A DNA stretch of 32,000 nucleotides from Nocardioidaceae bacterium (GCA_017744365.1 JAGIBL010000001.1:771416-803415); one strand, 5' to 3'. Numbered from the stretch's first letter, positions 10,547 to 27,743 are shown. Notes: generated by a model from the letters alone, not told the origin. Numbers and translations: made by a program.

Positions 10547-10547
10547 C

Positions 10548-10769: not shown

Positions 10770-10791
10770 GTCGTTGCTCCGTTCACTCTCG

Positions 10792-11286: not shown

Positions 11287-11295
11287 CTCTCCTCC

Positions 11296-12054
11296 TCAGG
11301 CCATCACGAAGCCGCCGTCGACGACCACGGTCTGGCCGGTGACGTAGCGGGCGTCCTCGGAGAGCAGGAACGCGACCACCCCGGCGACGTCGCCGGGGGT
11401 CTGGTCGATGGGTAGCGCGCGGTGCTCGCGGTAGAGCGCGTACCGCTCGGCCGGCACGGACTCGGTGGCCTCGACCCGGGTCAGCCCGGGCGCGACCGCG
11501 TTGACCCGGACGCCGTCGGGTCCGGCGTCGCGAGCCATCCCGCGGGTCAGCGCGATCACCGCGCCCTTGGAGGCGACGTAGTGCGCGAGCCGGGGCGAGC
11601 CGTAGAGGGCGGCGTCCGAGGCCAGGTTGACGATGGCGCCGCGGTGACCGGCCAGCTGGTCGTAGAGCGCGGCGGAGACCAGCCAGGTGCCGCGCACGTT
11701 GACGTCGAGGACCCGGCTGAACGCCTCGTCCGGGATCTGCCAGAAGGGCAGGCCGCCGACCCCGTCGGCCAGGGCGGCGTTGTTGACCAGGCCGTGCGCG
11801 CCGCCCAGGTCCGCCACCGCCGCGGCCAGCGTGGCCACCGAGCCGGGATCGGTCACGTCGGTGTCGACCCGGGTCACCCGCACCCCGGCCGCGCTCAGGT
11901 GCTCGACCCCACGGGCGGCGATCTCGGCACGCAGCTCGGCGACGACCACGTGCGCACCGGCCCGGCCGAGGTGCTCGGCGACGGCCAGCCCGAGGCCGCG
12001 GCCCGCGCCGGTGACCACGTAGGTACGGGGCTCGGGGGAGGAGTGCGTGGACAT
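11296..12054 (-). CDS. SDR-family oxidoreductase
   Basis: It has VTGAGRGLGLA (TGxxxGxG), NNAA and the catalytic YVASK (YxxxK), with a PG..T tail. Confidence 0.9.
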   Translation of the reverse strand: MSTHSSPEPRTYVVTGAGRGLGLAVAEHLGRAGAHVVVAELRAEIAARGVEHLSAAGVRVTRVDTDVTDPGSVATLAAAVADLGGAHGLVNNAALADGVGGLPFWQIPDEAFSRVLDVNVRGTWLVSAALYDQLAGHRGAIVNLASDAALYGSPRLAHYVASKGAVIALTRGMARDAGPDGVRVNAVAPGLTRVEATESVPAERYALYREHRALPIDQTPGDVAGVVAFLLSEDARYVTGQTVVVDGGFVMA

Positions 12055-12066
12055 GGCGGCGTCTTC

Positions 12067-13017
12067 TCAGAGGTCGAGGGTGATCTCGGGGTCGAGGGCG
12101 CGGGAGACGCAGACGAACATCACGTTGCCGGCGTGCTTCTCGGACTCGGTGAGCAGGTAGTCGCGGTGGTCGACCCGGCCGGCGAGCACCTTGGTCTCGC
12201 AGGTGCCGCAGATGCCCTCGGTGCACGAGCTGGGCACGTCGATCCCGGCCTCGGCCAGCGCGGCGAGCGCGGTGCTCCCGGCCGGGACCCGGACCACCCG
12301 GCCCGAGGCCCGGCAGACGATCTCGAAGGGCTGGTCCGGGCCGTCGTGAGCGACCGGGGCGGGCGCCTTGAACCGTTCCAGCCGGAGCGTGCCCGGGTCG
12401 TCGAGCACCGCGGCGACCGCGGCCAGCAGCGGCTCCGGGCCGCAGGCGTAGACGAGGGTGCCCGGCTCGGGACCGGCGAGCAGCGCGGCCAGGTCGGGCG
12501 GGCCGCCGGCCTGGTCGTCGGCGTGCAGCCGGACCCGGTCGGGCCCGAGAGCGAGCAGCTCCTCGGTGAAGGCCATCGAGGCCGCGCTGCGCCCGGCGTA
12601 CAGGAGCTGCCAGTCGGCGCCGCGACGGGCCAGCTCGCGCGCCATCGCCAGGATCGGGGTGATCCCGATGCCACCCGCGACCAGCCGGTAGTGCTCGGCG
12701 GGCTCGAGGGCGAAGCTGTTGCGCGGTCCGGAGACCCGGACCAGGTCGCCCGGCCTGAGCGTGGCGTGCACGTACCGGCTGCCGCCGCGCGAGTCGGCCT
12801 CGTCGAGCACCGCGACGGTCCAGCCGTCGGGGTCCGCCGGGTCGGAGCAGAGCGAGTACTCGCGGGCCAGCCCGTTGGGCAGGTGCACGGTCAGGTGCGC
12901 GCCCGGCTCCCACGACGGCAGTGTGCCGCCCCTGGCGTCGCGGAACCGGACGGCGAGCACGCCGTCGGCTTCCCAGGTGAGCTGGGTGACCCGCACGTCG
13001 TGGCTGGGGGACTCCAT
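12067..13017 (-). CDS. PDR/VanB-type oxygenase reductase (FMN/NAD-binding FNR module plus C-terminal plant-type 2Fe-2S)
   Basis: It has REYSL (RxYS flavin motif), GGIGITP (NAD-binding) and the C-terminal CTEGICGTCETKV...VCVS cluster motif. SD GAAGGAG lies at 13030-13036 on the minus strand. Confidence 0.9.
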   Translation of the reverse strand: MESPSHDVRVTQLTWEADGVLAVRFRDARGGTLPSWEPGAHLTVHLPNGLAREYSLCSDPADPDGWTVAVLDEADSRGGSRYVHATLRPGDLVRVSGPRNSFALEPAEHYRLVAGGIGITPILAMARELARRGADWQLLYAGRSAASMAFTEELLALGPDRVRLHADDQAGGPPDLAALLAGPEPGTLVYACGPEPLLAAVAAVLDDPGTLRLERFKAPAPVAHDGPDQPFEIVCRASGRVVRVPAGSTALAALAEAGIDVPSSCTEGICGTCETKVLAGRVDHRDYLLTESEKHAGNVMFVCVSRALDPEITLDL

Positions 13018-13041
13018 CGAGCGCCTGCGCTCCTTCGCTGA

Positions 13042-13059
13042 TATCTAAGTTCTAAGATA
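13042..13059. promoter_or_regulatory. Operator-like AT-rich pseudo-palindrome / tandem TCTAAG repeat upstream of the Rieske-reductase operon
   Basis: The sequence is TATCTAAGTTCTAAGATA. TCTAAG occurs at 13044-13049 and 13051-13056. Fourteen of 18 positions are self-complementary. It lies 25-40 nt upstream of the minus-strand start at 13017. Confidence 0.35.
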
Positions 13060-13155
13060 GTTTGCCACGATGGCGCGCGGGCCTCGCTCCGTCAATCCCC
13101 GCACGTGTAGATCGATCACCCTTTTCCGCCCTGAGGAACTTCGCGCATCAAAGCC

Positions 13156-13183
13156 TTGACACTAGGCATCTTATATCTAAGGT
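13156..13183 (+). promoter_or_regulatory. Sigma-70-type promoter candidate for module A (TTGACA, 16 nt, TAAGGT)
   Basis: TTGACA lies at 13156-13161. TAAGGT (TANNNT) lies at 13178-13183, 44 nt upstream of ATG 13227. It overlaps the pseudo-palindrome CTTATATCTAAG (13170-13181). Confidence 0.45.
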
Positions 13184-13226
13184 TTCGGCCAATCGTCTCG
13201 GTAGTCGAGTCCGAAGGAGACACCCG

Positions 13227-14414
13227 ATGCGTACCCGAACCCTCAGCGGCGGGCTCGCCCGCGTGACCGGAGCCGTGGCCGTGCTGCTGCTGGCGACCGG
13301 CGCGCTGGCGGCCTGCTCGGAGTCCTCCGACGACAAGCCCAGCACCGGCGGCAGCGGGAGCGGCGACGCCAGCGCGGCGATCGTCGCCGAGGCTCAGCAG
13401 GCCACCGACGCCCTCTTCGACACCGGCAGCGAGACGCCTCCGCCCGCGGACGGGCCGGCCGGGGTCAAGGGCAAGACGGTCTGGGTGGTCTCCTGCGGCC
13501 AGGCGGTCACCGGCTGCTCGCTGCTCACCGACGCGGCCGTGACCGCGAGCAAGCAGATCGGCTGGAAGACCACGCTGTGCGACGGCAACTTCAACGCCGG
13601 CGACCAGTACGGCAAGTGCATCCGGCAGGCGGTCGCGGCCGGCGCCGACGGGATCATCCTCAACTCGGTCGACTGCGTCGCGGTGACCCAGCCGCTCAAG
13701 GAGGCCAAGGCCGCCGGCGTCAAGGTGGCCGCGGTGAACACGTTCCCGTGCGACGGCGCGAACGCCGACCTGGCCACCATGGTGGTGCCCTCCACCGCGA
13801 CGCCGACCATCGACGCCTACGGCCAGGCCGCCGGCAAGGCACAGGCCGACTACCTGATCGCCACGAGCAAGGGCAAGGCGAAGGTGCTCAACTTCCGCTT
13901 CGTCGACAACTTCCTCGCGATCGAGGTGAACAAGGGCTTCGAGGCCGAGATGGCCACCTGCGGCACCTGCTCGGTGAAGAACACCGACATCACCCTGGCC
14001 GACTACGTCAATCCCTCGACGTTCGGGCAGAAGTCCAACGCCGCGCTGCTCTCCGCGCCGGACGCGACCGCGGTGCACGTGCCCTTCGACTCGTTCCTGA
14101 CCAGCGGCGTCGGGCAGGCGATCACCAGCGCCGGCCGGGCCGGCAAGCTCGACTCGATCGGGTTCAACGGCTTCGAGGCCAACCTCAACCTGATCCGCGA
14201 CGGCAAGGGCCAGACCGCCGCGCTGGGCGCCGACCAGGAGTGGGCCGGCTGGGCCGCCGCGGACACGATGAACCGGCTGCTTGCCGGCGCCGAGCCGGTC
14301 GCCGAGGGCATGGGCTTCAAAATGGTCGACGCGGACAAGAACCTGCCCTCCTCGGGCAGCTACCGCAGCGACATCGACTTCAAGGCGGCCTACGAGGCGG
14401 TCTGGTCGAAGTGA
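13227..14414 (+). CDS. ABC transporter substrate-binding lipoprotein, type I PBP (RbsB/LacI-like)
   Basis: SD GAAGGAG at 13213-13219 lies 7 nt before the ATG. It has a signal peptide with lipobox LAAC and a Ser/Gly-rich tether. The upstream 55 codons of the track ORF have no support. Confidence 0.85.
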   Translation: MRTRTLSGGLARVTGAVAVLLLATGALAACSESSDDKPSTGGSGSGDASAAIVAEAQQATDALFDTGSETPPPADGPAGVKGKTVWVVSCGQAVTGCSLLTDAAVTASKQIGWKTTLCDGNFNAGDQYGKCIRQAVAAGADGIILNSVDCVAVTQPLKEAKAAGVKVAAVNTFPCDGANADLATMVVPSTATPTIDAYGQAAGKAQADYLIATSKGKAKVLNFRFVDNFLAIEVNKGFEAEMATCGTCSVKNTDITLADYVNPSTFGQKSNAALLSAPDATAVHVPFDSFLTSGVGQAITSAGRAGKLDSIGFNGFEANLNLIRDGKGQTAALGADQEWAGWAAADTMNRLLAGAEPVAEGMGFKMVDADKNLPSSGSYRSDIDFKAAYEAVWSK

Positions 14415-15973
14415 CCGCGACGACGGTGGACCCGGCCTCGGCGGACGCGGAGGCGCCGGCGCGACTCCGGCTGGCCGGCGTGTCCAAGCGCTACGCCAGC
14501 ACCACGGCGCTGCACGAGGTCGGGCTCACCGTCGGCCGGGGCGAGATCCACGCCCTGCTGGGCGGCAACGGCTCCGGCAAGTCCACCCTCATCAAGATCG
14601 TCGCCGGGGTGGAGCGGGCCGAGCCCGGCGGCTCGCTGCACCAGGGCGACCAGGCCGCCGACCTGACCGGCTGGTCCGCCCGGGCCGCCCGCGAGGCCGG
14701 GATCCGGGTGGTGCACCAGGACATCGGCTACTTCCCGAGCCTGACCGTGGCCGACAACCTGGCCGCCGGCCACGGCTACCCGGTGGGCGCGTTCGGGAAC
14801 GTGCGCGACCGTCGCTGGCGCCGGCACACCGCCGAGGTGCTGGCCCGCTTCGACGTGGACGCGCGCCCGGAGACGCCGATGTCCGCGCTGCGGCCGGCGA
14901 CCCGGACCATGGTCGCCATCGGCCGCGCGCTGCAGGACGTCGACGAGGAGCGCTCGGGCGTGCTCATCCTCGACGAGCCCACCACCGCGCTGCCCCGGGG
15001 CGAGGTGGAGCACCTCTTCGCCGCGCTGCGTCGCTGTGCCGCGGCCGGCCACGCCATCGTCTTCGTCAGCCACCGGCTCTCCGAGGTGCTGGCCCTGTGC
15101 GAGAACGTCACCGTCCTGCGCGACGGCGAGCGGATCACCAGCCGCGCCACTGCGGGCCTCGACGAGCACGACCTCGCCGAGCTCGTCGCCGGCCGCCGGC
15201 TCGCGACCGCCAGCCACGGACGCGAAGCAGTCGCGGACGCGCCCTCGCTGGTGGCCGTCGAGGGCCTCGCCGCCGGCCCGCTGCAGGACGTCAGCCTGCG
15301 GGTCGCCGCCGGGGAGGTGCTCGGCATCGCCGGCCTGCTCGGCTCGGGGCGGAGCACCTTGCTGCGCACGCTCTTCGGCGACGTCGCCCCGGCCGCGGGC
15401 ACGGTCCGGCTCGACGGCGTCCCGGTGGCCTTCCGCAGTCCGCGCCAAGCCGTGCGCGCCGGGATCGCCTACGTGCCCGAGGACCGCGGTGGCGACGCGC
15501 TGTTCGGCTCGATGAGCCTGGACGAGAACCTCGCCGCGGTCGTGGTCGGCGACTACTGGCAGGGCGGCCTGTTGCGCCGGACCCGGCAGCGCCGCGAGTC
15601 CGCGCGGCTGGCCCGCGAGCTCGGCATCAAGACCGCCACCGTCACCCAGTCGCCGAACGAGCTGTCCGGCGGCAACCAGCAGAAGGCCGTGCTCGGTCGC
15701 TGGCTGCGCACCGAGCCGCGGCTGCTGCTGCTGGACAACCCCACCCAGGGCGTCGACGTCGGCGCCCGCGAGGACATCCACCGGCTGCTGCGCGACGCCG
15801 CCGGACGCGGCACCGCGGTCGTGGTGACCAGCGACGACTACGAGGAGCTGGCGCAGGTTTGCGACCGGGTCGTGGTGCTGCGCGAGGGCCGGGTCACCGG
15901 CTCGGTCGCCGCCGCCGACCTGAGCGCGGACCGGATCAGCCGCGAGATCTACGGAGAGCGAGCACCCCGATGA
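14411..15973 (+). CDS. CUT2-type ABC transporter ATP-binding protein (two fused ABC domains)
   Basis: The GTG start overlaps the SBP stop (GTGA). Domain 1 has Walker A GGNGSGKST and Walker B LILDEP. Domain 2 has GLLGSGRST, LSGGNQQK and LLLDNPTQGVD. Confidence 0.9.
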   Translation: MTATTVDPASADAEAPARLRLAGVSKRYASTTALHEVGLTVGRGEIHALLGGNGSGKSTLIKIVAGVERAEPGGSLHQGDQAADLTGWSARAAREAGIRVVHQDIGYFPSLTVADNLAAGHGYPVGAFGNVRDRRWRRHTAEVLARFDVDARPETPMSALRPATRTMVAIGRALQDVDEERSGVLILDEPTTALPRGEVEHLFAALRRCAAAGHAIVFVSHRLSEVLALCENVTVLRDGERITSRATAGLDEHDLAELVAGRRLATASHGREAVADAPSLVAVEGLAAGPLQDVSLRVAAGEVLGIAGLLGSGRSTLLRTLFGDVAPAAGTVRLDGVPVAFRSPRQAVRAGIAYVPEDRGGDALFGSMSLDENLAAVVVGDYWQGGLLRRTRQRRESARLARELGIKTATVTQSPNELSGGNQQKAVLGRWLRTEPRLLLLDNPTQGVDVGAREDIHRLLRDAAGRGTAVVVTSDDYEELAQVCDRVVVLREGRVTGSVAAADLSADRISREIYGERAPR

Positions 15974-16965
15974 CGCAGGCGCAGGCAGAGCGGCCCGACG
16001 GACTGCTGCGGATCACCACGGAGCGGTACGGGCTCGGCGTGCTCCTGGTTGCGGTGGTGGCGGTGTTCAGCACCCTGCCGCGCACCGGCGACCTGTTCGC
16101 CTCGCACGCCAACTTCACCGTGATCCTCGGCGGCGAGGTGCCGCTGTGCGTGATCGCGATCGCCTTCACGCTGCCGCTCGTGGTCGGCCAGCTCGACCTC
16201 AGCATCGCCTCGATCGCCGGGATGGCCTCGATCGCGGGGACCGCGGCGATGTCCCGGTTCGACCAGCCGCTGGTCGTCGCCATCCTCGTCGCGATCCTGT
16301 TCGGCGCGGCCGCCGGTGCCTTCAACGGCTTCCTCATCGCGGTGCTCGGCCTGGACTGCATCATCGTCACCCTCGCGGTGATGACGGTGATCGCCGGCCT
16401 GGTGCAGTGGTACACCGACGGCATCTCCATCAACACCGGCGTCTCCGCGACGCTGACCGACTTCGGCTCGCTGTCCTGGTTCGGGGTGCCGCGGATCGCC
16501 TTCCTGCTGGTGCTCGTGGTCGGGCTGGTCTGGTACGTCGTCGAGAAGACCCCGTTCGGCCGGCACCTGCGGATGATCGGCAGCAACCGGACCGCGGCCC
16601 GGCTGGTCGGCATCCCGGTGGTGTCCACCACGTTCGCGGTCTTCGTGCTCGCCGGGGCACTGGCCGGCGCCGGTGGCATGCTGCTCACCGCCCGGTCCGG
16701 CGGCGCCAACCCGCAGGAGGGCCCGGGCCTGCTGCTCGCGGCGCTGGCCGCGGTCTACCTGGGCGCGACCACGGTGCAGCCGGGCAAGTTCAACGTCGCC
16801 GGCACCGTCGTCGGCGTCTTCTTCCTGGCGCTGGCCGTCAGCGGGCTCACCCTCGCCGGGGTGCCGCCGTTCGTCAGCCAGCTCTTCGACGGCGGCGCCC
16901 TGCTGGTGGCGGTGGTGCTCTCCCGGTTCCTGGGCCGCAACCGCGTCGGCACGGTGGGGACCTGA
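15970..16965 (+). CDS. Monosaccharide-type ABC transporter permease
   Basis: It has an ATGA overlap with the ATPase. The 331-aa protein is multi-spanning and has GQLDLSIAS and MIGSNRTAARLVGI motifs. Confidence 0.9.
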   Translation: MTQAQAERPDGLLRITTERYGLGVLLVAVVAVFSTLPRTGDLFASHANFTVILGGEVPLCVIAIAFTLPLVVGQLDLSIASIAGMASIAGTAAMSRFDQPLVVAILVAILFGAAAGAFNGFLIAVLGLDCIIVTLAVMTVIAGLVQWYTDGISINTGVSATLTDFGSLSWFGVPRIAFLLVLVVGLVWYVVEKTPFGRHLRMIGSNRTAARLVGIPVVSTTFAVFVLAGALAGAGGMLLTARSGGANPQEGPGLLLAALAAVYLGATTVQPGKFNVAGTVVGVFFLALAVSGLTLAGVPPFVSQLFDGGALLVAVVLSRFLGRNRVGTVGT

Positions 16966-17867
16966 TGACGGCGGCCGGTGAAAACATCGTGTTGACGAGT
17001 GAATTCGACGCTCCGTACGCCTACAGCGCGATCACCGAGCGGCCCCACCGGCCGTTCCCCGGGGGCGCCCGGGTGGCGGTCTGGGTCGGCGTCAACGTGG
17101 AGGCCTACGCCTTCGGCCAGCAGGCGCTCAGCGTCGCTCCGCACGGGCCGTTCATCCCGCCCGACGCGATGAGCTACTCCTGGCGCGACTACGGCAGCCG
17201 GGTCGGGATCTTCCGGATGCTCGAGGCGATGAACGCGGCCGGCATCCGCGGCAGCGCGATCACCAACGCCGAGGTGCTGCACCGGTACCCGCCGGTGGTC
17301 GAGGCGATCCGGGCCGCCGGGTGGGACTGGGTCGCGCACGGGCGCAACAACTCGATCCTGCAGACCTCGATGGACCCCGACGCCGAGCGCGCCTACGTCG
17401 CCGAGGTCACCGCGACCTTCACCGAGGTGCTCGGGCTGGCGCCGCGCGGCTGGCTGGGCCCGGCCCGGGTCGCCACCCTGGCCACCAACCAGCTGCTCGC
17501 CGACGCCGGCTACTCCTACGCGCTGGAGTGGAACTGCGACGACCAGCCCTTCGACTTCGACCTCGAGCGCGGCCGGCTCGTCTCGGTGCCCTACTCGACC
17601 GAGGTCAACGACATCATCGCGTTCGTCTTCCGTGGCTCCTCGGGCGCGGAGTTCCGGCAGCTGGTCCTCGACCACGTCGGCACCCTGCGCGCCCAGGGCG
17701 AGCGCTGGCCCTCGGTCCTCGGGCTCAGCGTGCATCCCTTCCTGTGCGGGCAGCCCGCGAAGCTGCCGTACCTGATGGAGGCGCTGGCCGAGGTGGCCGC
17801 GCACCCGGACGTGTGGATGACCACCAGCGACGAGATCGCCGCCTGGTACCGGGAGGAGGGCCGTTGA
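16965..17867 (+). CDS. Polysaccharide-deacetylase-fold protein, PuuE (allantoinase)-like subgroup, copy A
   Basis: It has a TGATG overlap with the permease. It carries YSWRDYGSRVGIFR, the WVAHGRNN, PRGWLGP and VHPFL motifs, and is a clear paralog of 28409..29305. Confidence 0.8.
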   Translation: MTAAGENIVLTSEFDAPYAYSAITERPHRPFPGGARVAVWVGVNVEAYAFGQQALSVAPHGPFIPPDAMSYSWRDYGSRVGIFRMLEAMNAAGIRGSAITNAEVLHRYPPVVEAIRAAGWDWVAHGRNNSILQTSMDPDAERAYVAEVTATFTEVLGLAPRGWLGPARVATLATNQLLADAGYSYALEWNCDDQPFDFDLERGRLVSVPYSTEVNDIIAFVFRGSSGAEFRQLVLDHVGTLRAQGERWPSVLGLSVHPFLCGQPAKLPYLMEALAEVAAHPDVWMTTSDEIAAWYREEGR

Positions 17868-18622
17868 GCGCCTCCTTCGCGGGCCGGCACGCGGTGGTCA
17901 CCGGGGCCGCCAGCGGCATCGGGCGCCGTACGGCGGAAGCACTCGCCGAGCGCGGCGCCACGGTGGCCTGCCTGGACCGCGACGGTGACCGGCTCGAGGA
18001 GGTGGTGGCCGCCCTGGGCGGCGCCGCCACCGGGCACGTCGCCGACGTGACCAGCTCGGCGCAGGTCGACGCCGCCTTCGACGCGGCCGCCGCCACCGCA
18101 TCGCTGGACCTGGTGGTCAACATCGCCGGCGCCGCCTTGATGGGCGCGGTGCACGAGCTCTCCGACGAGGACTGGGCCGACTGCCTGGGCCGGAACCTGA
18201 CCGGCACCTTCTACTGCTGTCGCGCCGCGGTCCGGCACCTCGGCGCGCGCGGCGGGGTGATCGTGAACATGTCGTCCTCGCTGGGCCGGATCGCCGCGCC
18301 GCGGTTCGCGGCCTACAGCGCGGCCAAGGCGGGCGTGCGCGCGCTGACCATGCAGATGGCCCGCGACTACGGCCCGGCGATCCGGGTGAACTCGGTCTCG
18401 CCGGCGGCCACCGACACCCCGGGCGTCCGGTACGCCATCGAGTCCGCTGCGGACCCGGCGGCGGTGGAGGCCGAGATCGCCGGCGGCAACCACATCGCCG
18501 GCCGGCTGGCCACCACCGACGAGGTGGTCGCCGGGATCCTCTTCGCCGCCTCGGCGGAGTCGTCGTTCATGTTCGGCCACGACCTGGTGCTCTGCGGCGG
18601 CCAGACCACGGTCGCGTACTGA
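17864..18622 (+). CDS. SDR-family oxidoreductase
   Basis: The TTG start follows SD GGGAGGAGGG (17851-17860) and overlaps the upstream stop. It has VTGAASGIG, the catalytic YSAAK and SVSPAATDTP. Confidence 0.85.
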   Translation: MSASFAGRHAVVTGAASGIGRRTAEALAERGATVACLDRDGDRLEEVVAALGGAATGHVADVTSSAQVDAAFDAAAATASLDLVVNIAGAALMGAVHELSDEDWADCLGRNLTGTFYCCRAAVRHLGARGGVIVNMSSSLGRIAAPRFAAYSAAKAGVRALTMQMARDYGPAIRVNSVSPAATDTPGVRYAIESAADPAAVEAEIAGGNHIAGRLATTDEVVAGILFAASAESSFMFGHDLVLCGGQTTVAY

Positions 18623-18644
18623 GTCGCGGACGGAGAGGGAAGAG

Positions 18645-19337
18645 ATGCCAGAACCCTGGGACCACCTACTCGGCGAGCGCGACCGGGCCGTCCTCGCGGC
18701 CAGTGGCTACGGGCAGTCCCGCAAGCTCCGGTCGCCGGCCGCGGTGCTGGTCATCGACCTGACGTTCGACTTCCTCGGCGACCGGCCGGAGCCGATCCTG
18801 GAGTCGGTCACCCGGTTCCCGAACAGCTGCGGCGCCGAGGGCTGGGCCGCGGCCGAGCGGCTCGCGCCGGTGCTGGCCGCGGCGCGCGCGAGCGACGTCC
18901 CGGTCCTGTACACCACCCGCAGCACCGAGCACCCGGTGCTGGAGGAGCTGACCTGGGGTGGCAAGCAGACCAACGCCGGCCGCGCGGCGATGGGGGAGAG
19001 CGCGGCGACCGGCTTCCCGCCCGCCATCGCGCCGCAGCCCGGCGACACCGTGATCGAGAAGACCAAGCCGAGCGCGTTCTTCGACACCCCGCTGCGGCAG
19101 TACCTGGTGCTGCTCGGGATCCGGCAGCTCTTCGTCGCCGGCGCCACCACCAGCGGCTGCGTGCGGGCCACCGTCGTGGACGCGTTCTCGCACGGGTTCC
19201 GCACCGCGGTGCTGGCCGACTGCGTCGCGGACCGGATCGAGGCCTCGCACGCGATCGCCCTGTTCGACCTGCAGGCCAAGTACGCCGACCTGACCGACGC
19301 GGCCACGGCGACCGGCGCGCTGGGGGAGGGCCGGTGA
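18645..19337 (+). CDS. Isochorismatase-like cysteine hydrolase, N-carbamoylsarcosine amidase / maleamate amidohydrolase-type (copy 1)
   Basis: The D-K-C triad context is VLVIDLTFDF, KTKPSAFF and GATTSGCVRATVVDA. Confidence 0.85.
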   Translation: MPEPWDHLLGERDRAVLAASGYGQSRKLRSPAAVLVIDLTFDFLGDRPEPILESVTRFPNSCGAEGWAAAERLAPVLAAARASDVPVLYTTRSTEHPVLEELTWGGKQTNAGRAAMGESAATGFPPAIAPQPGDTVIEKTKPSAFFDTPLRQYLVLLGIRQLFVAGATTSGCVRATVVDAFSHGFRTAVLADCVADRIEASHAIALFDLQAKYADLTDAATATGALGEGR

Positions 19338-20332
19338 GCTCCCTCGCGCTCAGCTACGGCGGCCTGCTCTACCTGGACCGGACCCTGCCGCTCTACCTCG
19401 ACCAGGTCCGCCCGGCCGGGATCGACCTGACCTACGTACCGTTCGACTCGCCCGGTGACCTGTTCCGGCGGCAGTGCCAGTACGCGCAGTTCGAGGTCTC
19501 CGAGCTCTCCGCCTCCAGCTACCTGGCGATGCTCAGCCGCGGCGACGACCGGTTCGTGGCGCTGCCGCTGCCGGTCTCCCGGAACTTCCGGCACAGCCAG
19601 GTCTACGTGCACACCGACGCCGGCATCGCCCGTCCCGAGGACCTGCGCGGCCGCCGCGTCGGCATCCTGGAGTACCAGATGACCGCGGCGCTGTGGATCC
19701 GCGGCTTCCTCGCCGACGACCACGGTGTCACCCCCGACCAGGTCGACTGGCACACCGGCGGCCTGGTCGAGCCGGCCTGGGCCGAGCGCCTCGAGCTGGA
19801 CCTTCCCGAGGGGGTGCGGCTGACGCCGATCCCGGCCGGGGCGACGCTGGAGGCGATGCTCGAGGCCGGCGAGCTGGACGCGCTGGTCACCGTGCAGCCG
19901 CCGCAGCGCTTCGGCCAGGTGCCGCAGCTGCGCCGGCTCTTCGAGGACGCGACCGCGGTCGAGCGCGACTACCACCGGCGCACCGGGATCTTCCCGATCA
20001 TGCACCTGGTCGTCGTACGGCGTGACGTCTACGAGCGGCACCGCTGGGTGGCGCTCGCGCTCTACGAGGCCTTCGCGCGGGCCAAGGCGCAGGGGATGGG
20101 GCGGCTGCGCGCGATCACGGGCCTGGCCGTCGGGCTGCCCTTCCTGGCCGCCGCCCTCGCCGAGGTCGACGAGGCCTTCGCCGGCGACGCCTTCCCGTAC
20201 GGCGTCGAGCCGAACCGGCTCACGCTGCAGAAGCTGAGCGACTACGCCTTCGAGCAGGGCATCGCGGCCCGCCGGGTGCCGGTCGAGGAGATGTTCGCCC
20301 CCGAGACCTACCAGGAGCCGATCGCCCTATGA
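19334..20332 (+). CDS. PhtD-like protein (family annotated as 4,5-dihydroxyphthalate decarboxylase; cytosolic periplasmic-binding-protein fold)
   Basis: It has a GTGA overlap and no signal peptide. It carries the motifs FEVSELSASSYL, FVALPLPVSRNFRHSQVYV, LRGRRVGILEYQMTAALWIRG and IFPIMH. Confidence 0.7.
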   Translation: MSSLALSYGGLLYLDRTLPLYLDQVRPAGIDLTYVPFDSPGDLFRRQCQYAQFEVSELSASSYLAMLSRGDDRFVALPLPVSRNFRHSQVYVHTDAGIARPEDLRGRRVGILEYQMTAALWIRGFLADDHGVTPDQVDWHTGGLVEPAWAERLELDLPEGVRLTPIPAGATLEAMLEAGELDALVTVQPPQRFGQVPQLRRLFEDATAVERDYHRRTGIFPIMHLVVVRRDVYERHRWVALALYEAFARAKAQGMGRLRAITGLAVGLPFLAAALAEVDEAFAGDAFPYGVEPNRLTLQKLSDYAFEQGIAARRVPVEEMFAPETYQEPIAL

Positions 20333-21897
20333 GCACGCGCAAGCCGCGGATCGCCGTCGTCGCCGGTCCGACCGCGACGATCCTGAACACCCCGCCGCTC
20401 GTGGCCGGCCCGCTGCGCCCGCAACGGCTCGGCGCCGCGACGACGGTGTGGGTCGAGCACCTGAGCGCGCACCCGATGGAGAGCGACCTCGGCGCCCGGC
20501 AGGCCGGACCCGACGGCTACCTGACCGAGGACGGCTCGGTCAGCCCCGAGCGGACCGCCGAGACCGACGTCGCGGTGGTCGCGGTCAGGCTCGACGCCGG
20601 CGCGCTCTACCCGCTGCCGTACACCCCGCGCCCGGCCGACGGCTGGGAGCCGGGCGGCTGGGACGACCCGCGGCAGACGTTCTTCCCGGACGCCTCCCGG
20701 GCCTACGAGGAGATCGACGCGCTGGTCGAGATGGACGGCCGCGACGGCACCCTGAGCGCCCTGGCCGACTTCGTGCACGTCCGGGTGCTGCCCTCGGCCG
20801 GGCGGACCAGCCCGCCGGACTGCGAGCGCCTCGGCCACGACTACTTCCCGTACTGGCCGCCGCACCGCCGCGGCGAGCCCGACCGCGGCGCCCTGGCCCG
20901 GCTGACCAACGAGCTCGGCGCCCTGCTGGCCGGAGGCGAGGTGGACGCGGTCCAGTACCTCGAGGGCAGCGCCAGCATCGAGGAGTCGCTGTACTGGCTG
21001 GCGCTCACCCTCGACACCGACCGGCCCGTCGTCGGGCACTGCGCCCAGGTGCCGCACCAGGCGCTCGGCTCGGACGGCCCGCGCAACATCGTCGACGGCG
21101 TCCTGTACGTCGCCTCCGGTGCCGCGCTCGACGAGGACGGCCGCGACCGGGTCGGCCCGGTGCTGGTCGCCGACGGCCAGGTCTTCGCCGCCCGCGAGGT
21201 GGCCAAGACCGACGGCCGGTACGGCGGCTACCGCGCGACCGGCGGACTCGGCGGCGTGGTCGGAGCCGTGCACAGCTACCGCGGCGTGCACGTGGACCAC
21301 CTCAGCACCCGGCGGCACACCCGGACCTCCGAGCTGACCGTCGCCCGCCTGCCCGCGCAGGTGCGCCACGTGCACGGCCGGCTCGCGACCGGCCTGCGGG
21401 TCGGCACCACGACCGTGAAGGACGCGGCCGGACGGCTGCGCGAGGACGCGGTGCCGTCCGTGCTGGTGCACAAGTACGGCCGCTACACCGGCGATGCCGG
21501 CACCGACTCGGCCCGCGAGCGGGCGGCGCTGTGGGGCTGGATCGAGGCCTACCTGGACGGCGCCACCCGGCCGCTGGGCATCGTGCTGGAGGGCAACCCG
21601 TCGTACGGGCACGCCGACCCGTGGGAGGAGGCTGTGCTCACCACCGCCCTGCACGCCGGCGTCCCGGTGGTGCGCGCCGGGCGTGGCAACGGGTCCGGCT
21701 TCGTGCGGATCCCGCCGATGCCGTTCGCGGCGGCCAGCAACCTGACCGCGGCCAAGGCCCGGATCCTGCTGACCGCGGCGCTGCTCAAGCTGGGCTCGCT
21801 GGAGCCGGCGGCCGACCCGCGGAACCCGACCGAGGCCGAGCGGCAGCGCACCGCCGACCAGCTCGCCGCCTACCAGGAGCTCTTCGATGAGCACTGA
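20329..21897 (+). CDS. Divergent, enlarged asparaginase/glutaminase-fold protein (522 aa)
   Basis: It has an ATGA overlap. The blocks run in the same order as type II asparaginase: RIAVVAGPTATI, YLEGSASIEESLYWLALTLDTDRPVV, LGSDGPRNIVDGV, REVAKTD, GIVLEGNPSYG and NLTAAKARILLTAAL. Confidence 0.75.
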   Translation: MSTRKPRIAVVAGPTATILNTPPLVAGPLRPQRLGAATTVWVEHLSAHPMESDLGARQAGPDGYLTEDGSVSPERTAETDVAVVAVRLDAGALYPLPYTPRPADGWEPGGWDDPRQTFFPDASRAYEEIDALVEMDGRDGTLSALADFVHVRVLPSAGRTSPPDCERLGHDYFPYWPPHRRGEPDRGALARLTNELGALLAGGEVDAVQYLEGSASIEESLYWLALTLDTDRPVVGHCAQVPHQALGSDGPRNIVDGVLYVASGAALDEDGRDRVGPVLVADGQVFAAREVAKTDGRYGGYRATGGLGGVVGAVHSYRGVHVDHLSTRRHTRTSELTVARLPAQVRHVHGRLATGLRVGTTTVKDAAGRLREDAVPSVLVHKYGRYTGDAGTDSARERAALWGWIEAYLDGATRPLGIVLEGNPSYGHADPWEEAVLTTALHAGVPVVRAGRGNGSGFVRIPPMPFAAASNLTAAKARILLTAALLKLGSLEPAADPRNPTEAERQRTADQLAAYQELFDEH

Positions 21898-21928
21898 GCC
21901 GCGCGGTCGGCGGACCTCAGCCGGTCGC

Positions 21929-22474
21929 TCAGCCGGCCTCTTCGTCGCGGACCCGCTCGGCGAACTCCAGGGACACCTCGAGGCGGGAGAGCAGGGTGGC
22001 CAGCTGCTGCTGCTCGGAGGCGGTCAGCCCGCCGAGCATCTTGTTCTGCTCGGCGAAGTGCCGCTCGACGACGAAGTCGATGCGCTGGTGGCCGGCCTTG
22101 GTGAGCTGGACGTAGACGATCCGGCGGTCCTTGGGGTCGCGCACCCGCTCGACCAGGCCGTCGCGCTCGAGCCGGTCGATGCGCTGGGTCAGGCCGCCGG
22201 TGCTGATGAGCCCGACCTGGGCGAGCTGCCCGGCGGTTCGGCGGTAGTCGGGGGCGCTGCGGCGCAGCGAGGCGAGCACGTCGAAGGCCGCCATGGTCAG
22301 GTCGAACTCGGCAAGCACCTCGCTGACCAGGCCGCTGTAGCGGATGTCGCAGCGGTGCAGCCGGCCGAGCACGCCGATGCTGCTCACGTCGAGCGCGGGA
22401 GCCTCCCGGTTCCACTGCTCGATGATCATGTCGACCAGGTCCGTCGGACGTCGGTGCGAGGTCTTCGGCGCCAT
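21929..22474 (-). CDS. MarR-family transcriptional regulator
   Basis: The winged-helix core is AGQLAQVGLISTGGLTQRIDRLERDGLVERVRDPKDRRIVYVQLT. ATG 22474 lies about 5 nt after GGGAG. An alternative start is GTG 22480, as in the ORF track. Confidence 0.9.
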   Translation of the reverse strand: MAPKTSHRRPTDLVDMIIEQWNREAPALDVSSIGVLGRLHRCDIRYSGLVSEVLAEFDLTMAAFDVLASLRRSAPDYRRTAGQLAQVGLISTGGLTQRIDRLERDGLVERVRDPKDRRIVYVQLTKAGHQRIDFVVERHFAEQNKMLGGLTASEQQQLATLLSRLEVSLEFAERVRDEEAG

Positions 22475-22513
22475 CTCCACTCCCTCAGCTCTAAGTATTC
22501 AACGATGAGGATA

Positions 22514-22531
22514 GTCGCACGCTCGTGCGAC
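22514..22531. promoter_or_regulatory. Perfect inverted repeat GTCGCACG-CT-CGTGCGAC in the marR/permease divergent region
   Basis: I read it directly: 8-bp arms and a 2-nt spacer, 40 nt upstream of marR ATG 22474. Confidence 0.35.
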
Positions 22532-22588
22532 CGCTCACGCCCGATGCTTCGGGACAACGGAATTCCCACAGGGATCGATGGTTCCCCC

Positions 22589-22605
22589 AGTTGCTTCGAC
22601 CTAAG
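22589..22605 (+). promoter_or_regulatory. Conserved 17-nt box AGTTGCTTCGACCTAAG (copy 1)
   Basis: It matches 24832-24848 at 15 of 17 positions. It ends 31 nt before ATG 22636. Confidence 0.4.
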
Positions 22606-22635
22606 AGTTGGAGACCGACGAGTTGGAGGTTGGGC

Positions 22636-23433
22636 ATGAGCATCGACACCCGCAGGCTGGCACGGCGGGCGACCCAGGTGGGCAAGCCGCTGGCGCTGTT
22701 CACGGTGCTGGTCGCGATCTGGCAGGTCGTCGTCGACAAGGGCCTGGTCCCGACCGTCGCCCTCGCCTCGCCGAGCGAGGTCCTCGACTACATCGTCACC
22801 CAGCGCGCCCAGTTGTGGACCAACAGCCAGGCCACGATCAAGGAGATCGTGCTGGCCTTCGCGATCGCCTTCGTGGTGGGCGTGGTGCTGGCCATCCTCA
22901 TCAAGGAGTTCCAGATCCTGCACGACGCGCTGCTGCCGCTGCTGGTGGTCACCCAGCTGGTGCCGTCGGTCGCGATCGCGCCGCTGCTGGTGCTGATCCT
23001 CGGCTTCGGCGACGCTCCCAAGATCGCGACCGCGGCGGTGATCGCGTTCTTCCCGATCCTCATCAACACCGTCGCCGGGCTGGACAACGTGGAGAAGGAG
23101 GCGATCGACCTCACCCGCAGCCTGCGCGCCTCCCGGATCCAGACGCTGCGCTACCTCGAGCTGCCCTCGGCGATCCCCTACATGTTCGCCGGCACCCGGA
23201 TCGGCATCACCCTCAGCGTGATCGGCGCGGTCGTCGGCGAGTTCGTCACCGCCGACAAGGGCCTGGGCTACCTGATCCTGCAGGGCAGCTCGACGCTGGA
23301 CCCCACCCTCGTCTTCGCCTCGCTGGTGGTGCTGGCCGGGATCGGGCTGCTGCTCTTCGGTGCCGTCCGGGTCGTGGAGTACTTCGTCGTCCCGTGGAAC
23401 CGGGCCCCGGCCCAGCGAGGAGGCCGGTCATGA
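22636..23433 (+). CDS. NitT/TauT-family ABC transporter permease
   Basis: ATG 22636 lies 6 nt after GGAGG (22625-22629). The 265-aa protein is a multi-spanning BPD-type membrane protein. The upstream 37 codons of the track ORF lie in AT-rich non-coding DNA. Confidence 0.9.
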   Translation: MSIDTRRLARRATQVGKPLALFTVLVAIWQVVVDKGLVPTVALASPSEVLDYIVTQRAQLWTNSQATIKEIVLAFAIAFVVGVVLAILIKEFQILHDALLPLLVVTQLVPSVAIAPLLVLILGFGDAPKIATAAVIAFFPILINTVAGLDNVEKEAIDLTRSLRASRIQTLRYLELPSAIPYMFAGTRIGITLSVIGAVVGEFVTADKGLGYLILQGSSTLDPTLVFASLVVLAGIGLLLFGAVRVVEYFVVPWNRAPAQRGGRS

Positions 23434-24212
23434 GCGCGCTCATCTCGATCACCGGCGTGGCCAAGCGCTACGCCACCGACCGCGGCGAGGTGGTCGCGGT
23501 CCAGGACGTCGACCTCGAGGTGCGGCAGGGCTCGTTCGTCGCGCTGCTCGGGCCGAGCGGCTGCGGGAAGAGCACGCTGCTGCGGATGGTGGCCGGCCTC
23601 GACGCGCCGAGCGAGGGCCGGATCCTGCTCGACGGCCAGGACGTGGTGGCGCCGACGGCGATGGTCGGCTTCATGTTCCAGCACTCGCTGCTGTTCCCGT
23701 GGCGCTCGGTGATCGAGAACGTGCTGCTGCCGGTCGACATAGCCCGGGGCAAGCGGGCCGAGCACCTGGACCGCGCGCACGCGCTGCTGGCCAGCGTCGG
23801 CCTGGAGGAGTTCGCCCACCACCGCCCGAACGAGCTCTCCGGCGGCATGCAGCAGCGGGCGGCGCTGTGCCGGGCGCTGATCGTCGACCCGCCGGTGCTG
23901 CTGCTCGACGAGCCCTTCGGCGCGCTGGACAGCATCACCCGCGAGGAGCTCAACGACCTGCTGCTGCAGATCTGTCACGAGTCGGGGAAGACCACGCTGC
24001 TGGTCACCCACGACGTCGAGGAGGCCGTCTACCTGGCCGACGAGGTGGTGGTGATGTCGAGCCGGCCCGGGCGGATCTCCGACGTCGTCGGCGTCGAGCT
24101 CGGCTATCCCCGCGACACCGAGACCCGCAACCTGCCCGAGTTCCGGGCGCTGGCGACCCGGCTGCGCAAGGGGCTGGGGATCGCGCACCGGCAGGGGAGG
24201 GCGGCCCGGTGA
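23430..24212 (+). CDS. NitT/TauT-family ABC transporter ATP-binding protein
   Basis: It has an ATGA overlap. It carries GPSGCGKST, LSGGMQQRAALCRAL and LLLDEPFGALD. Confidence 0.9.
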   Translation: MSALISITGVAKRYATDRGEVVAVQDVDLEVRQGSFVALLGPSGCGKSTLLRMVAGLDAPSEGRILLDGQDVVAPTAMVGFMFQHSLLFPWRSVIENVLLPVDIARGKRAEHLDRAHALLASVGLEEFAHHRPNELSGGMQQRAALCRALIVDPPVLLLDEPFGALDSITREELNDLLLQICHESGKTTLLVTHDVEEAVYLADEVVVMSSRPGRISDVVGVELGYPRDTETRNLPEFRALATRLRKGLGIAHRQGRAAR

Positions 24213-24832
24213 CGGAGGCCCTCGTCCCGGCCAGGACCGCGCTGGTGATCGTGGACATGCAGAACGACTTCCTGCATCCCGACGGGGCGCACGGACGCGC
24301 CGGCCTCGACATCGGCGCGGGCCTGGCGCTGCTGCCGGCGCTCAACGACTTCGTCGCGCAGTGCCGCCGGGTGGGCGTGCTCCCGATCTACCTGCAGGAG
24401 GTGCTGACCCGGCACACCAGCATGGCCAACCTGGTCGCGCAGTGGGGCCGCTGGGACACCCTCGTGGTCGAGGGCACCTGGGGCGCGCAGCTGCACGACG
24501 ACCTGGTCCCGCGCGAGCCGGACGAGCCGCTGGTGGTGAAGAGCAACTACGACGGCTTCCAGGACACCGTGCTCGACCTGGTGCTCAAGGCGCACGGGAT
24601 CAGCACGCTGCTCTTCGCCGGCGTCGGCACCAACGTGTGCGTGGAGACGACCGCCCGGCACGCCTACGGGCTGGGCTACCGGGTGGTGACCCTGGAGGAC
24701 CTCTGCGCCGCCTCCAGCGTGCCCGAGCACGAGGCCGCGATCTGGAACCTGGGCACCTACTTCGGCGAGGTACGGCGCAGCGCCGAGATCGTCGCGGACT
24801 GGGCCTTGACACCTCAAGTGACTCATCTCTAA
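24209..24832 (+). CDS. Isochorismatase-like cysteine hydrolase (copy 2, general PncA/RutB/BiuH-like type)
   Basis: It has a GTGA overlap. The D-K-C triad context is LVIVDMQNDF, VVKSNYDGF and GVGTNVCVETTARHA. It ends in TAA, which lies inside the TCTAAG motif. Confidence 0.85.
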   Translation: MTEALVPARTALVIVDMQNDFLHPDGAHGRAGLDIGAGLALLPALNDFVAQCRRVGVLPIYLQEVLTRHTSMANLVAQWGRWDTLVVEGTWGAQLHDDLVPREPDEPLVVKSNYDGFQDTVLDLVLKAHGISTLLFAGVGTNVCVETTARHAYGLGYRVVTLEDLCAASSVPEHEAAIWNLGTYFGEVRRSAEIVADWALTPQVTHL

Positions 24833-24835
24833 GTT
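24806..24835 (+). promoter_or_regulatory. Internal promoter candidate inside module B (TTGACA, 18 nt, TAAGTT)
   Basis: GCCTTGACAC is identical to the 10-mer at 13153-13162. The -10-like TAAGTT at 24830-24835 includes the TAA stop of the upstream gene. Confidence 0.4.
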
Positions 24836-24848
24836 GTTTAGACCTAAG
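24832..24848 (+). promoter_or_regulatory. Conserved 17-nt box AGTTGTTTAGACCTAAG (copy 2)
   Basis: It matches 22589-22605 at 15 of 17 positions. It ends 31 nt before GTG 24879. Confidence 0.4.
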
Positions 24849-24878
24849 TAATTCTCCGAACGAACGAGGGTGACAAGC

Positions 24879-25520
24879 GTGGATCTCATCAAGTCGACCG
24901 TCCTCCCCGAGGGCGCCGAGGAGCTGCAGTCGCTGCACATCGCGGCGCGGGGGCACGTGGCGTTCACGATGCGGGCAGGCAACGTGGTCCGGATCGTCGA
25001 CGTCGAGGGCCAGCAGGTCGCCGACCTGGTCGCCTTCAACCAGACCGACCACACCGAGCGGCTCAACGGCGAGACGACGATGCTGCTCAACGGGACCTAC
25101 AACCCGCGCGAGGGTCACGTGGTCTACAGCGACGACTGCAACCCGATGTTCACGATCATCGACGACAAGGTCGGCCGCAACTACCCGGGCGCACTGATGT
25201 GCTCCCAGGAGATGAACCTGATCCGCTACGGCATCCCGGGCACCGTCAACTGCCGCGACAACCTCACCGACGCGCTGCGTCCCTGGGGGATCGGCATGAA
25301 GGACATCCCCGGCGCCTTCACGCCGTTCATGAACGTGATCCACCACCCCGACGGCCGCGCCGAGATCGCCGAGCCGCCCTCGGCCGCCGGGGACCACATC
25401 GACCTGCGCGCGGAGATGGACCTCCTGGTCGCGATCAGTGCCTGCCCGCAGGAGCGCAACCCGGTCAACGGCTGGAAGCCCAGCTCGCTCGACGTCGTCG
25501 TCTACCACCAGGAGTCCTGA
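24879..25520 (+). CDS. DUF1989 (urea-carboxylase-associated / carboxyguanidine-deiminase family) protein
   Basis: It has VRIVDVEGQQVADLVAF, DHIDLRAEMDLLVAISACPQ and the family-typical C-terminus. GTG 24879 lies 8 nt after GAGGG. An alternative start is GTG 24870, as in the ORF track. Confidence 0.8.
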   Translation: MDLIKSTVLPEGAEELQSLHIAARGHVAFTMRAGNVVRIVDVEGQQVADLVAFNQTDHTERLNGETTMLLNGTYNPREGHVVYSDDCNPMFTIIDDKVGRNYPGALMCSQEMNLIRYGIPGTVNCRDNLTDALRPWGIGMKDIPGAFTPFMNVIHHPDGRAEIAEPPSAAGDHIDLRAEMDLLVAISACPQERNPVNGWKPSSLDVVVYHQES

Positions 25521-26509
25521 TGAAGAGTCCACGGTCACCCCGCCCGCGCTGGTACCTCGTCGCCGCCCTCGCGGCACTCGGGCTCGCGGTCACCGCCTGC
25601 GGTAGCAGCGATCCAGGAGCGAGCGGCAAGGCCGGCAGCACCTCGATCAACTTCAGCCTCGGGTACGGCGCGGACAGCCTGTTCGCCCCGATGTACTACG
25701 CCGAGGGCAAGGGCCTCTACGAGGCCGAGGGCCTCCAGGTGCGCATCCAGCCCAGCGGCGGCACCGCGCAGGTGCTGACCCGGATCGAGGCCGGCCAGGC
25801 CCAGCTGGGCGTCGCCGACTCCAGCTCGGTGATCAAGGCGATCGCCGACCAGGACACCCCCGTGATCATCATCGCGGTGCTGCTCGACCACAGCCCGTCG
25901 GTGACCGCCACCCAGAAGTCCTCCGGCATCACCGACATCGCCGGCCTCAAGGGCAAGAGCCTCGGCGACTCGCCGGCCGGCGGCATGTGGCAGCGCACCC
26001 CGGCCCTCCTCGGCGCCAACGGCCTCACCGTCGCGGACATCAAGCGGGTGCCGATCAACCAGGGCGTGAACTCGGCGCTGCTGGCCGGCAAGGTGGACGC
26101 GGTCAACAACTACGCCGAGACGTTCGCCGGTTCCGCGGACAAGCTGAACCTGATCCCGTGGTTCGAGCAGGGCGTCGACCCGGTCGGTGACGTGCTCATC
26201 GTCAACAAGGACTGGGCGAAGAAGAACCCCGACGCGGTCCGGGCGTTCGTGAAGGCGACCATGACCGGCCTGCAGAAGTCGATCGCCGACCCGGCCACCG
26301 CCGCCGAGGTGCTGGCCAAGGCCGCGCAGTCGACGGATCCGGGCTACTTCAGCGACGGCATCGAGCTGCTCGAGCCGTTCTGGACGACCAGCGGCACCAC
26401 CACCTCCGAGCGCTGGGCCGCGACCCAGGAGCTGAACGTGAAGTACCTCGGGCAGACCAAGACGCTGACCGAGGACCAGATCTTCACCGCGGAGTACCTG
26501 CCGAAGTGA
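25520..26509 (+). CDS. NMT1/THI5-like ABC substrate-binding lipoprotein (NitT/TauT family)
   Basis: It has a TGATG overlap and a signal peptide with lipobox-like AVTAC. The type II PBP pattern includes INFSLGYGADSLFAPMYYA and LKGKSLG. Confidence 0.85.
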   Translation: MKSPRSPRPRWYLVAALAALGLAVTACGSSDPGASGKAGSTSINFSLGYGADSLFAPMYYAEGKGLYEAEGLQVRIQPSGGTAQVLTRIEAGQAQLGVADSSSVIKAIADQDTPVIIIAVLLDHSPSVTATQKSSGITDIAGLKGKSLGDSPAGGMWQRTPALLGANGLTVADIKRVPINQGVNSALLAGKVDAVNNYAETFAGSADKLNLIPWFEQGVDPVGDVLIVNKDWAKKNPDAVRAFVKATMTGLQKSIADPATAAEVLAKAAQSTDPGYFSDGIELLEPFWTTSGTTTSERWAATQELNVKYLGQTKTLTEDQIFTAEYLPK

Positions 26510-27732: not shown

Positions 27733-27743
27733 GAGGAACACCC

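Follow-up and report, generated by a model that had tools for sequence, protein, structure and literature searches.

The stretch of DNA analyzed in this work (the window) comprises 32,000 nucleotides of the genome of a Nocardioidaceae bacterium (C7:771416-803415; genome size 4.76 Mb, 72% GC). Coordinates given without a prefix are window positions. The window encodes a MarR-type regulator (marR) and four predicted transcription units: an operon with reductase and Rieske oxygenase genes, a long operon named module A, and two consecutive parts of a module B. Three short AT-rich intergenic islands of the window contain recurrent words TCTAAG and CCTAAG. We consider these words here as candidate parts of operators recognized by the encoded MarR.

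Genes were called from third-position GC, and domains were assigned from Pfam and NCBIfam (Table 1). The marR gene lies on the minus strand and is divergent from the permease operon that begins at 22636 on the plus strand; the 161-bp gap between them holds two of the candidate sites, O3 and O4. Module B (22636-29979, plus strand) has only one real gap, at 24833-24878. None of the Rieske, reductase, MarR and hydrolase genes received an equivalog name from NCBIfam.

TCTAAG occurs five times in the window, on the plus strand only (at 13044, 13051, 13176, 22490 and 24828). CCTAAG was read from the sequence at 22600 and 24843, and TTTAGA at 24837-24842. All these positions had been given correctly in an earlier description of the locus made from the sequence alone, referred to below as the original prediction. 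Its statement that TAA is essentially confined to the AT-rich patches also holds, because all eight plus-strand TAA trinucleotides of the window are inside the three islands. Plus-strand TTA occurs three times, twice in the islands and once, at 10792, as the stop codon of the alpha/beta-hydrolase-like gene. Two promoter-bearing gaps of the same window (5311-5404 and 29980-30181) have no TAA or TTA and no match to the motif.

In shuffles of the whole window TCTAAG is expected 1.26 times, and five or more copies appeared in one of 100 shuffles. Genome-wide, TCTAAG/CTTAGA has 45 copies, i.e., 0.3 per 32 kb. Several of the 45 copies have unrelated explanations; one TCTAAG, at C7:1319992, belongs to the conserved 3' end of 16S rRNA (...CACCTCCTTTCTAAGGAG). 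The islands total 449 bp and have 47-58% GC. Dinucleotide-preserving shuffles of the islands contained 0.28 copies of the hexamer on average, and none of 20,000 reached the observed five. Thus the clustering goes beyond what the AT-richness of the islands explains, and the original prediction was right to call it non-random.

The conserved sequence is longer than the hexamer. Seven bp upstream of each of the seven CTAAG words there is a pentamer that matches CTNAG at three or four of the four specified positions. CTNAG reads the same on both strands, which makes the unit a palindrome of 12 bp, CTNAG-N2-CTNAG. TCTAAG and CCTAAG are the better-conserved right halves of six to seven candidate palindromic sites whose left halves are degenerate here. 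The recurrence claimed in the original prediction therefore stands, while its choice of the hexamer as the element does not: the unit is a palindrome of 12-18 bp, and the first T of TCTAAG is a non-conserved spacer base. TTTAGA, listed there as a separate inverted site, is indeed present at 24837, but it forms a single site together with the CCTAAG at 24843, of which it supplies the left half.

The 18-bp form of the predicted operator is T-xx-CT-N8-AG-xx-A. Its outer CT and AG are C9T10 and A19G20 of the operator consensus T6xxC9T10-N8-A19G20xxA23 described for the UrtR subfamily of MarR regulators (PMC11602129). The crystallized operators of this subfamily are PecO1, TATCTTGACTTCAAGGTA, and MftrO, TGTCTCTACGTCAAGATA (PMC11602129). 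O1b is the only exact match to the UrtR consensus in the window, the remaining sites matching at four or five of the six positions. It adjoins the Shine-Dalgarno (SD) sequence of the reductase gene, whose start codon (13017, minus strand) is 25 nt downstream of the site. O5 includes the TAA stop codon (24830-24832) of the isochorismatase-like gene. Seven 12-mers with at most one mismatch lie in the islands against 0.22 in island shuffles, and none of 20,000 shuffles reached seven. A search for inverted repeats with 12-bp arms gave nothing in the islands; the palindromes have arms of 5-9 bp and were scored by a script instead.

Table 1. Predicted transcription units, regulator gene, putative promoters and candidate operators of the window. 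Matches are given to the UrtR consensus (of 6 positions) and to CTNAG-N2-CTNAG (of 8 positions); ranks are genome-wide.
Feature	Position	Strand	Sequence	12-mer (start)	Matches	Matrix score (rank)	Content or remarks
Target operon 1 (predicted)	9470..13017	-					Fer2/FNR-type reductase, SDR, small alpha/beta-hydrolase-like, 73-aa HTH_62 protein, Rieske (VanA_C-type) oxygenase
Target operon 2, module A (predicted)	13227..21897	+					sugar-type ABC importer, polysaccharide-deacetylase-like, SDR, isochorismatase-like, binding-protein-like, asparaginase-fold protein
marR	21929..22474	-					181 aa, UrtR-subfamily MarR; Pfam MarR_2/MarR (MarR_2 E 2.2e-14)
Target operon 3, module B first part (predicted)	22636..24832	+					ABC permease, ATPase, isochorismatase-like hydrolase; divergent from marR
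Target operon 4, module B second part (predicted)	24879..29979	+					DUF1989, NMT1-type binding protein, cytosine-deaminase-like amidohydrolase, isochorismatase-like, polysaccharide-deacetylase-like, class II aldolase
Putative module A promoter	13156..13183	+					-35 TTGACA 13156-13161, 16-nt spacer, -10 TAAGGT 13178-13183 (TANNNT type); read from sequence
Putative internal module B promoter	24806..24835	+					-35 TTGACA 24806-24811, 18-nt spacer, -10 TAAGTT 24830-24835; read from sequence
O1a, weak overlapping site	13035..13052		TCGCTGATATCTAAGTTC	CTGAT-AT-CTAAG (13038)	5/6; 7/8	10.6	offset 7 bp from O1b
O1b, predicted operator	13042..13059		TATCTAAGTTCTAAGATA	CTAAG-TT-CTAAG (13045)	6/6; 8/8	31.2 (1)	
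O2, predicted operator	13167..13184		CATCTTATATCTAAGGTT	CTTAT-AT-CTAAG (13170)	4/6; 7/8	18.7 (7)	spans spacer and -10 of module A promoter
O3, predicted operator	22481..22498		TCCCTCAGCTCTAAGTAT	CTCAG-CT-CTAAG (22484)	5/6; 8/8	18.5 (8)	immediately upstream of marR SD/start
O4, predicted operator, weakest	22591..22608		TTGCTTCGACCTAAGAGT	CTTCG-AC-CTAAG (22594)	5/6; 7/8	10.2	similar to CTTGCTCCTAAGAG of the relative G019
O5, predicted operator	24819..24836		TGACTCATCTCTAAGTTG	CTCAT-CT-CTAAG (24822)	5/6; 7/8	24.7 (3)	spans spacer and -10 of internal module B promoter
O6/7, predicted operator	24834..24851		TTGTTTAGACCTAAGTAA	TTTAG-AC-CTAAG (24837)	5/6; 7/8	23.8 (4)	TTTAGA and CCTAAG are the two halves

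Two of the candidate sites coincide with putative promoters, which are candidates for the sigma-70/HrdB type (-35 TTGACA, -10 TANNNT, spacer of 16-18 nt). As originally claimed, the TCTAAG at 13176 overlaps the putative -10 box of module A: O2 spans the spacer and the TAAGGT that follows TTGACA after 16 nt. The claim that the TCTAAG at 22490 adjoins the marR SD is equally accurate, and this location directly upstream of the SD and start codon makes O3 a probable site of autoregulation. A scan with the E. coli promoter consensus reported no promoter; it demands at least four of six matches to TATAAT and so is uninformative for boxes of the TANNNT type. The sequence GCCTTGACAC is identical at the module A promoter and the internal module B promoter (13153-13162 and 24803-24812). 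Similarly, a 17-nt box at 22589-22605 (O4) recurs at 24832-24848 (O6/7) with 15 of 17 identical positions, and both copies end 31 nt before a start codon (the permease ATG at 22636 and the GTG at 24879). Promoter-plus-operator cassettes thus appear to have been copied within the island. Because O1a and O1b overlap and the pairs O4 and O6/7, O2 and O5 belong to near-duplicate cassettes, the seven sites are not seven independent events.

The MarR protein is, by its sequence, a member of the UrtR (PecS/MftR/HucR) subfamily. Its top matches in the PDB are MftR (8YLF, E 6.6e-30), PecS (8YLH, E 1.5e-27) and HucR (2FBK, E 4.5e-13), the three proteins of a structural study on urate-responsive regulators (PMC11602129). 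The tryptophan of the N-terminal helix alpha-0 (PecS W24, HucR W20) is kept: 'IEQW' of the window protein aligns with 'LEQW' of PecS and 'VEQW' of MftR, the helix itself being inferred from the alignment. The ligand-pocket residues D68, R75 and H142 (PecS numbering) are absolutely conserved in UrtR proteins (PMC11602129). Their equivalents are present here ('FDVLASLRR' and 'ERH' versus 'FDMLATLRR' and 'EAH' in PecS) and are conserved in all 24 aligned homologues. The three invariant DNA-binding arginines (PecS R101, R113 and R121) are retained as well, with 'TQR', 'VER' and 'DRR' corresponding to 'THR', 'IER' and 'DAR' of PecS. The recognition core is S-T-G-G in the window MarR and T-T-G-G, S-T-G-G or T-S-G-G in the homologues; it has small residues, as the UrtR family requires, but departs in the window MarR from the T/S-S-G-T of the subfamily.

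A close orthologue of the MarR was found in only one of 40 relatives of the same genus (G019, 74% identity). Therefore no footprinting within the genus could be done, and the comparison was taken to other genera. A scan of species genomes gave 23 MarR homologues with 52-59% identity, from Streptomyces, Spirillospora, Actinomadura, Actinoallomurus, Nocardia, Pseudonocardia and Bailinhaonella. The G019 marR and an ABC transporter operon are transcribed divergently; CTTGCTCCTAAGAG, located in the intervening gap, resembles CTTCGACCTAAGAG of the window. Another site of this genome, CTTAGTCATCAG (34548), lies just upstream of the start of its own marR and overlaps the ribosome-binding site, in the same position and orientation as O3. 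The G019 marR is 2.4 kb from a cluster of the form cupin-reductase-...-SDR-...-HTH_62-Rieske, with CTAAGTATCTTAGGTCTGAG in the gap before the cupin gene.

The same palindrome was found beside marR in the other genera. Foreign marR loci contain 19 exact copies of CTNAGNNCTNAG versus 1.25 +/- 1.2 in shuffles, and 12 copies of CTWAGNNCTWAG versus 0.005. The CTTAG-N2-CTAAG sites come from at least five genera (Streptomyces, Actinomadura, Spirillospora, Actinoallomurus and Nocardia) and are nearly all intergenic, directly upstream of genes, marR included. Their extended consensus is AAATAT-CTTAG-CG-CTAAG-ATATTT. At the position three bases before C, which was not used in the selection, T has a frequency of 0.53, as the UrtR consensus predicts.

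The gene neighborhoods are shared, too. In seven of the 23 homologues marR is the divergent neighbor of a cupin-reductase-(HTH_62)-Rieske-...-SDR cluster, and in some others the reductase gene is 2-5 kb away. Orthologues of the reductase, Rieske and SDR genes are near marR in at least ten other genomes (including L019, L023, L024, L030-L032, L040 and G019). An aldehyde dehydrogenase gene convergent with marR is a further recurrent neighbor in other genera. The link between MarR and the Rieske operon looks ancestral, modules A and B looking like later recruits.

A 24-bp matrix was built from the foreign sites alone, with the window and G019 excluded, and was run over the whole genome. Window sites took ranks 1, 3, 4, 7 and 8. 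Every match in the window with a score above 7 is inside the three islands, and the other intergenic gaps scored below 0. The possibility, named in the original prediction as a ground for rejection, that the motif is as common in coding DNA or in unrelated intergenic regions was checked in this way and is not the case. Outside the window, 15 kb upstream of it, GTAAGCGCTTAG (C7:756264, matrix score of 15.8) follows a box of the TTGAC type and shortly precedes a gene start; it is possibly a further operator of the window MarR or of a related regulator.

Taken together, the UrtR membership, the match to UrtR operators, the synteny and palindromes of foreign genomes and the ranks of the matrix scan support the proposal of the original prediction that one repressor, most likely the MarR at 21929..22474, serves the Rieske operon, modules A and B and the internal promoter of module B. 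We consider it likely that TCTAAG and CCTAAG are halves of UrtR-type operators for the adjacent MarR. Since a UrtR-type repressor is encoded beside the shared sites, the four neighboring operons would probably form one regulon.

Binding by this MarR, repression, the ligand and the transcription starts are what we infer by analogy with studied members of the subfamily. As in PecS, MftR and HucR, a MarR dimer would place its two recognition helices in the major grooves of the outer CT/AG and its wings in the minor groove of the flanking T/A. Without ligand the sites would be occupied. O2 and O5 would occlude the spacer and -10 box of the two TTGACA promoters; O4 and O6/7 would act just downstream, each 31 nt before a start codon; O1 would act beside the SD of the reductase-Rieske operon, and O3 beside the marR SD would provide autoregulation. 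A urate-like N-heterocycle bound in the W/D/R/H pocket would then unwind the start of the recognition helix and release the DNA, which would lead to a joint de-repression of the four transcription units.

Several observations weigh against this interpretation. The recognition core of the window MarR is S-T-G-G, compared with T/S-S-G-T in UrtR proteins, the most conserved serine being a threonine here. The left half-sites are degenerate, and O2 has only four of the six UrtR consensus positions. In the whole window the degenerate 12-mer (at most one mismatch) occurs nine times against 6.8 +/- 2.8 in shuffles, i.e., it is not enriched; the signal is therefore one of placement rather than number, and we used placement and island-level shuffles instead. 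The recurrence of the motif comes in part from duplicated cassettes, as the two copies of GCCTTGACAC and the 15/17 copy of the 17-nt box indicate. The shuffle statistics make the sites look more independent than they are, since the core of the matrix was chosen on the pattern and many of the foreign loci are closely related. Finally, a paralogous regulator with three similar sites of its own could bind the window sites.

This paralogue (C8:247537-248103) is a UrtR-type MarR 44% identical to the window MarR. Matches of ranks 5, 6 and 13 are three tandem sites (247497-247550) in the 40-bp gap directly upstream of its gene, and the match of rank 2 is 10 kb from it. The locus (C8:240500-248103) has a divergent operon with orthologues of two companions of marR in other genera, the cupin (70-73% identical) and aldehyde dehydrogenase (58-60%) genes; in this genome the ancestral cluster thus seems to be divided between two loci. 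The asparaginase-fold gene of the window was considered as a counterpart of the aldehyde dehydrogenase gene and was rejected, the cupin and aldehyde dehydrogenase orthologues of the genome being at the C8 locus. The paralogue (50-55% identical to the foreign MarR group) and the window MarR are also about equally close to that group. It is nevertheless unlikely that the UrtR-type sites of the window are occupied mainly, or also, by this protein or another regulator of the island instead of the adjacent MarR. O3 is beside the SD of the window marR, and the equivalent G019 site has the same orientation and location in front of the 74%-identical orthologue. Sites near its own gene are the usual targets of a local regulator. 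A tree with long branches and moderate support places the window and G019 proteins within the foreign clade and the C8 paralogue outside.

The hexamer could also be merely a -10 box (TAAGNT, of the TANNNT type) with the AT-rich context of plus-strand promoters copied together with gene modules, with no shared repressor. TAAGGT and TAAGTT do follow perfect TTGACA boxes after 16 and 18 nt, all hexamers are on the same strand as modules A and B, GCCTTGACAC and the 17-nt box are present in near-identical copies, and several occurrences of TCTAAGGT elsewhere in the genome resemble -10 boxes. Such an explanation accounts for the strand bias and for two of the sites. However, it accounts neither for the left halves 7 bp upstream of every CTAAG nor for O1b, a perfect 18-bp palindrome that lacks a -35 box and precedes a gene on the minus strand. 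The presence of O3 in the marR leader, the foreign CTTAG-N2-CTAAG sites beside MarR homologues of five other genera before genes of either orientation, and the match to crystallographically defined UrtR operators are likewise left unexplained. We regard it as very unlikely that promoter boxes are the whole explanation; the two ideas are compatible, since an operator can overlap a -10 box. As for a chance build-up of an AT-rich word in AT-rich intergenic DNA, the islands are indeed AT-rich for a genome of 72% GC, and coding DNA here has hardly any TAA, but this explanation is effectively refuted by the 20,000 island shuffles, by the genome-wide matrix scan, by the absence of the motif from other gaps and by its presence in foreign loci.

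The hydrolases (polysaccharide-deacetylase/PuuE-like, isochorismatase-like, cytosine-deaminase-like and DUF1989), together with the xanthine-dehydrogenase-type enzymes of other genera, are compatible with the breakdown of a purine-like N-heterocycle. No enzyme reaches an equivalog score, so the ligand is a putative one. The gene context suggests that the natural ligand may be an N-heterocycle other than urate. Co-regulation would place the oxygenase in the same pathway. In six loci of Streptomyces and Actinoallomurus (L018, L020, L022, L025, L027 and L029) a molybdenum hydroxylase of three subunits (FAD, 2Fe-2S and MoCo) is encoded divergently from marR, and the Streptomyces loci have an XdhC maturation gene and an MFS transporter gene near it. 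These neighbors hint at a pathway of N-heterocycle hydroxylation under the same operator.

Some other features of the locus were noted. The 73-aa HTH_62 ('recombinase-like HTH') protein, encoded at 10548-10769 on the minus strand, is conserved immediately upstream of the Rieske gene across genera (L022, L025, L031 and G019); it may be a regulator or an accessory protein of the oxygenase. A perfect GC-rich palindrome, GTCGCACG-CT-CGTGCGAC (8+8 bp), lies between O3 and O4 at 22514-22531 and is unique in the genome. It could be the site of a second regulator or a leader hairpin; no counterpart was noticed in the G019 intergenic sequence, in which no dedicated search was made. The direct repeat CCGTTGAGTAGTC occurs twice at 29972-30008, 20 bp apart, across the stop codon of the class II aldolase gene and is unrelated to the CTAAG motif. 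An Rfam scan of the whole window revealed no riboswitch or other RNA family, and an RNA-level explanation was dropped on this ground.

Among known systems, PecS/PecO (Dickeya, Pectobacterium, Agrobacterium and Vibrio; 8YLH, 8YLI and 8YLJ) shares with the window MarR the alpha-0 Trp helix, the D/R/H pocket and the three arginines, and PecO1 and O1b have the same 18-bp architecture. In both cases the regulator gene and a transporter operon are transcribed divergently, with multiple operator sites per intergenic region. The inner bases of the half-sites differ (CTNAG here, CTTGA/TCAAG in PecO), as does the recognition core (S-T-G-G and T-S-G-T, respectively). PecS targets the PecM efflux pump and virulence genes, whereas the predicted targets here, which extend over 20 kb and include a promoter internal to an operon, are the Rieske operon and two ABC-importer/amide-hydrolase modules. 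MftR/MftrO of Burkholderia thailandensis (8YLF, 8YLG, 8YLK and 8YLL) is the best solved relative and has the same operator consensus. MftR is released from DNA by urate or xanthine and is a broad regulator centered on the MftP efflux pump, in contrast to the local catabolic island of an actinomycete proposed here.

HucR of Deinococcus radiodurans (2FBK; 8YLM) represses the uricase gene and itself from a shared intergenic operator, hucO, with urate as the inducer (PMC5487221). This logic, a catabolic regulon switched by the heterocycle of the pathway, is the closest functional parallel. However, HucR is a more distant relative and acts on one divergent target through one operator, compared with the six to seven predicted sites and four transcription units of the window. 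PcaV of Streptomyces coelicolor and CouR of Rhodococcus jostii are MarR repressors encoded beside aromatic-catabolic operons; they use palindromic operators that overlap promoters and are themselves released by a pathway intermediate (PMC3616709, PMC4737184). They are not UrtR proteins: they have no alpha-0 Trp pocket, and their operator sequences and ligands differ.

The regulatory principle is a textbook one, a well-known type of switch, and the predicted multi-operon catabolic regulon would be unusually large for the UrtR kind. We tentatively suggest that an actinomycete clade of UrtR proteins senses an N-heterocycle other than urate (e.g., a substituted or methylated purine-like compound) and coordinates an undescribed catabolic route. 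Hallmarks of this clade are MAAFDVLA and a T/S-T-G-G core. It is invariably linked to the reductase/HTH_62/Rieske/SDR set and, in a genus-dependent way, also to a molybdenum hydroxylase of three subunits or an aldehyde dehydrogenase. On this suggestion, two importer/amide-hydrolase modules would have been newly acquired, and the regulon of the window would have grown when copies of the GCCTTGACAC...CTAAG cassette and of the 17-nt box were placed before them.

The outcome is a testable regulon in which one UrtR-type repressor, with six to seven predicted operators and four transcription units, would join the Rieske operon to two orphan amide/amidine-hydrolase modules. The inducing ligand would be the most direct clue to the substrate of the pathway, and CTTAG-N2-CTAAG offers a means of tracing the regulon in Streptomyces, Actinomadura, Nocardia and their relatives. 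UrtR proteins already serve as urate biosensors; given this use, a UrtR relative with a different ligand would be useful.

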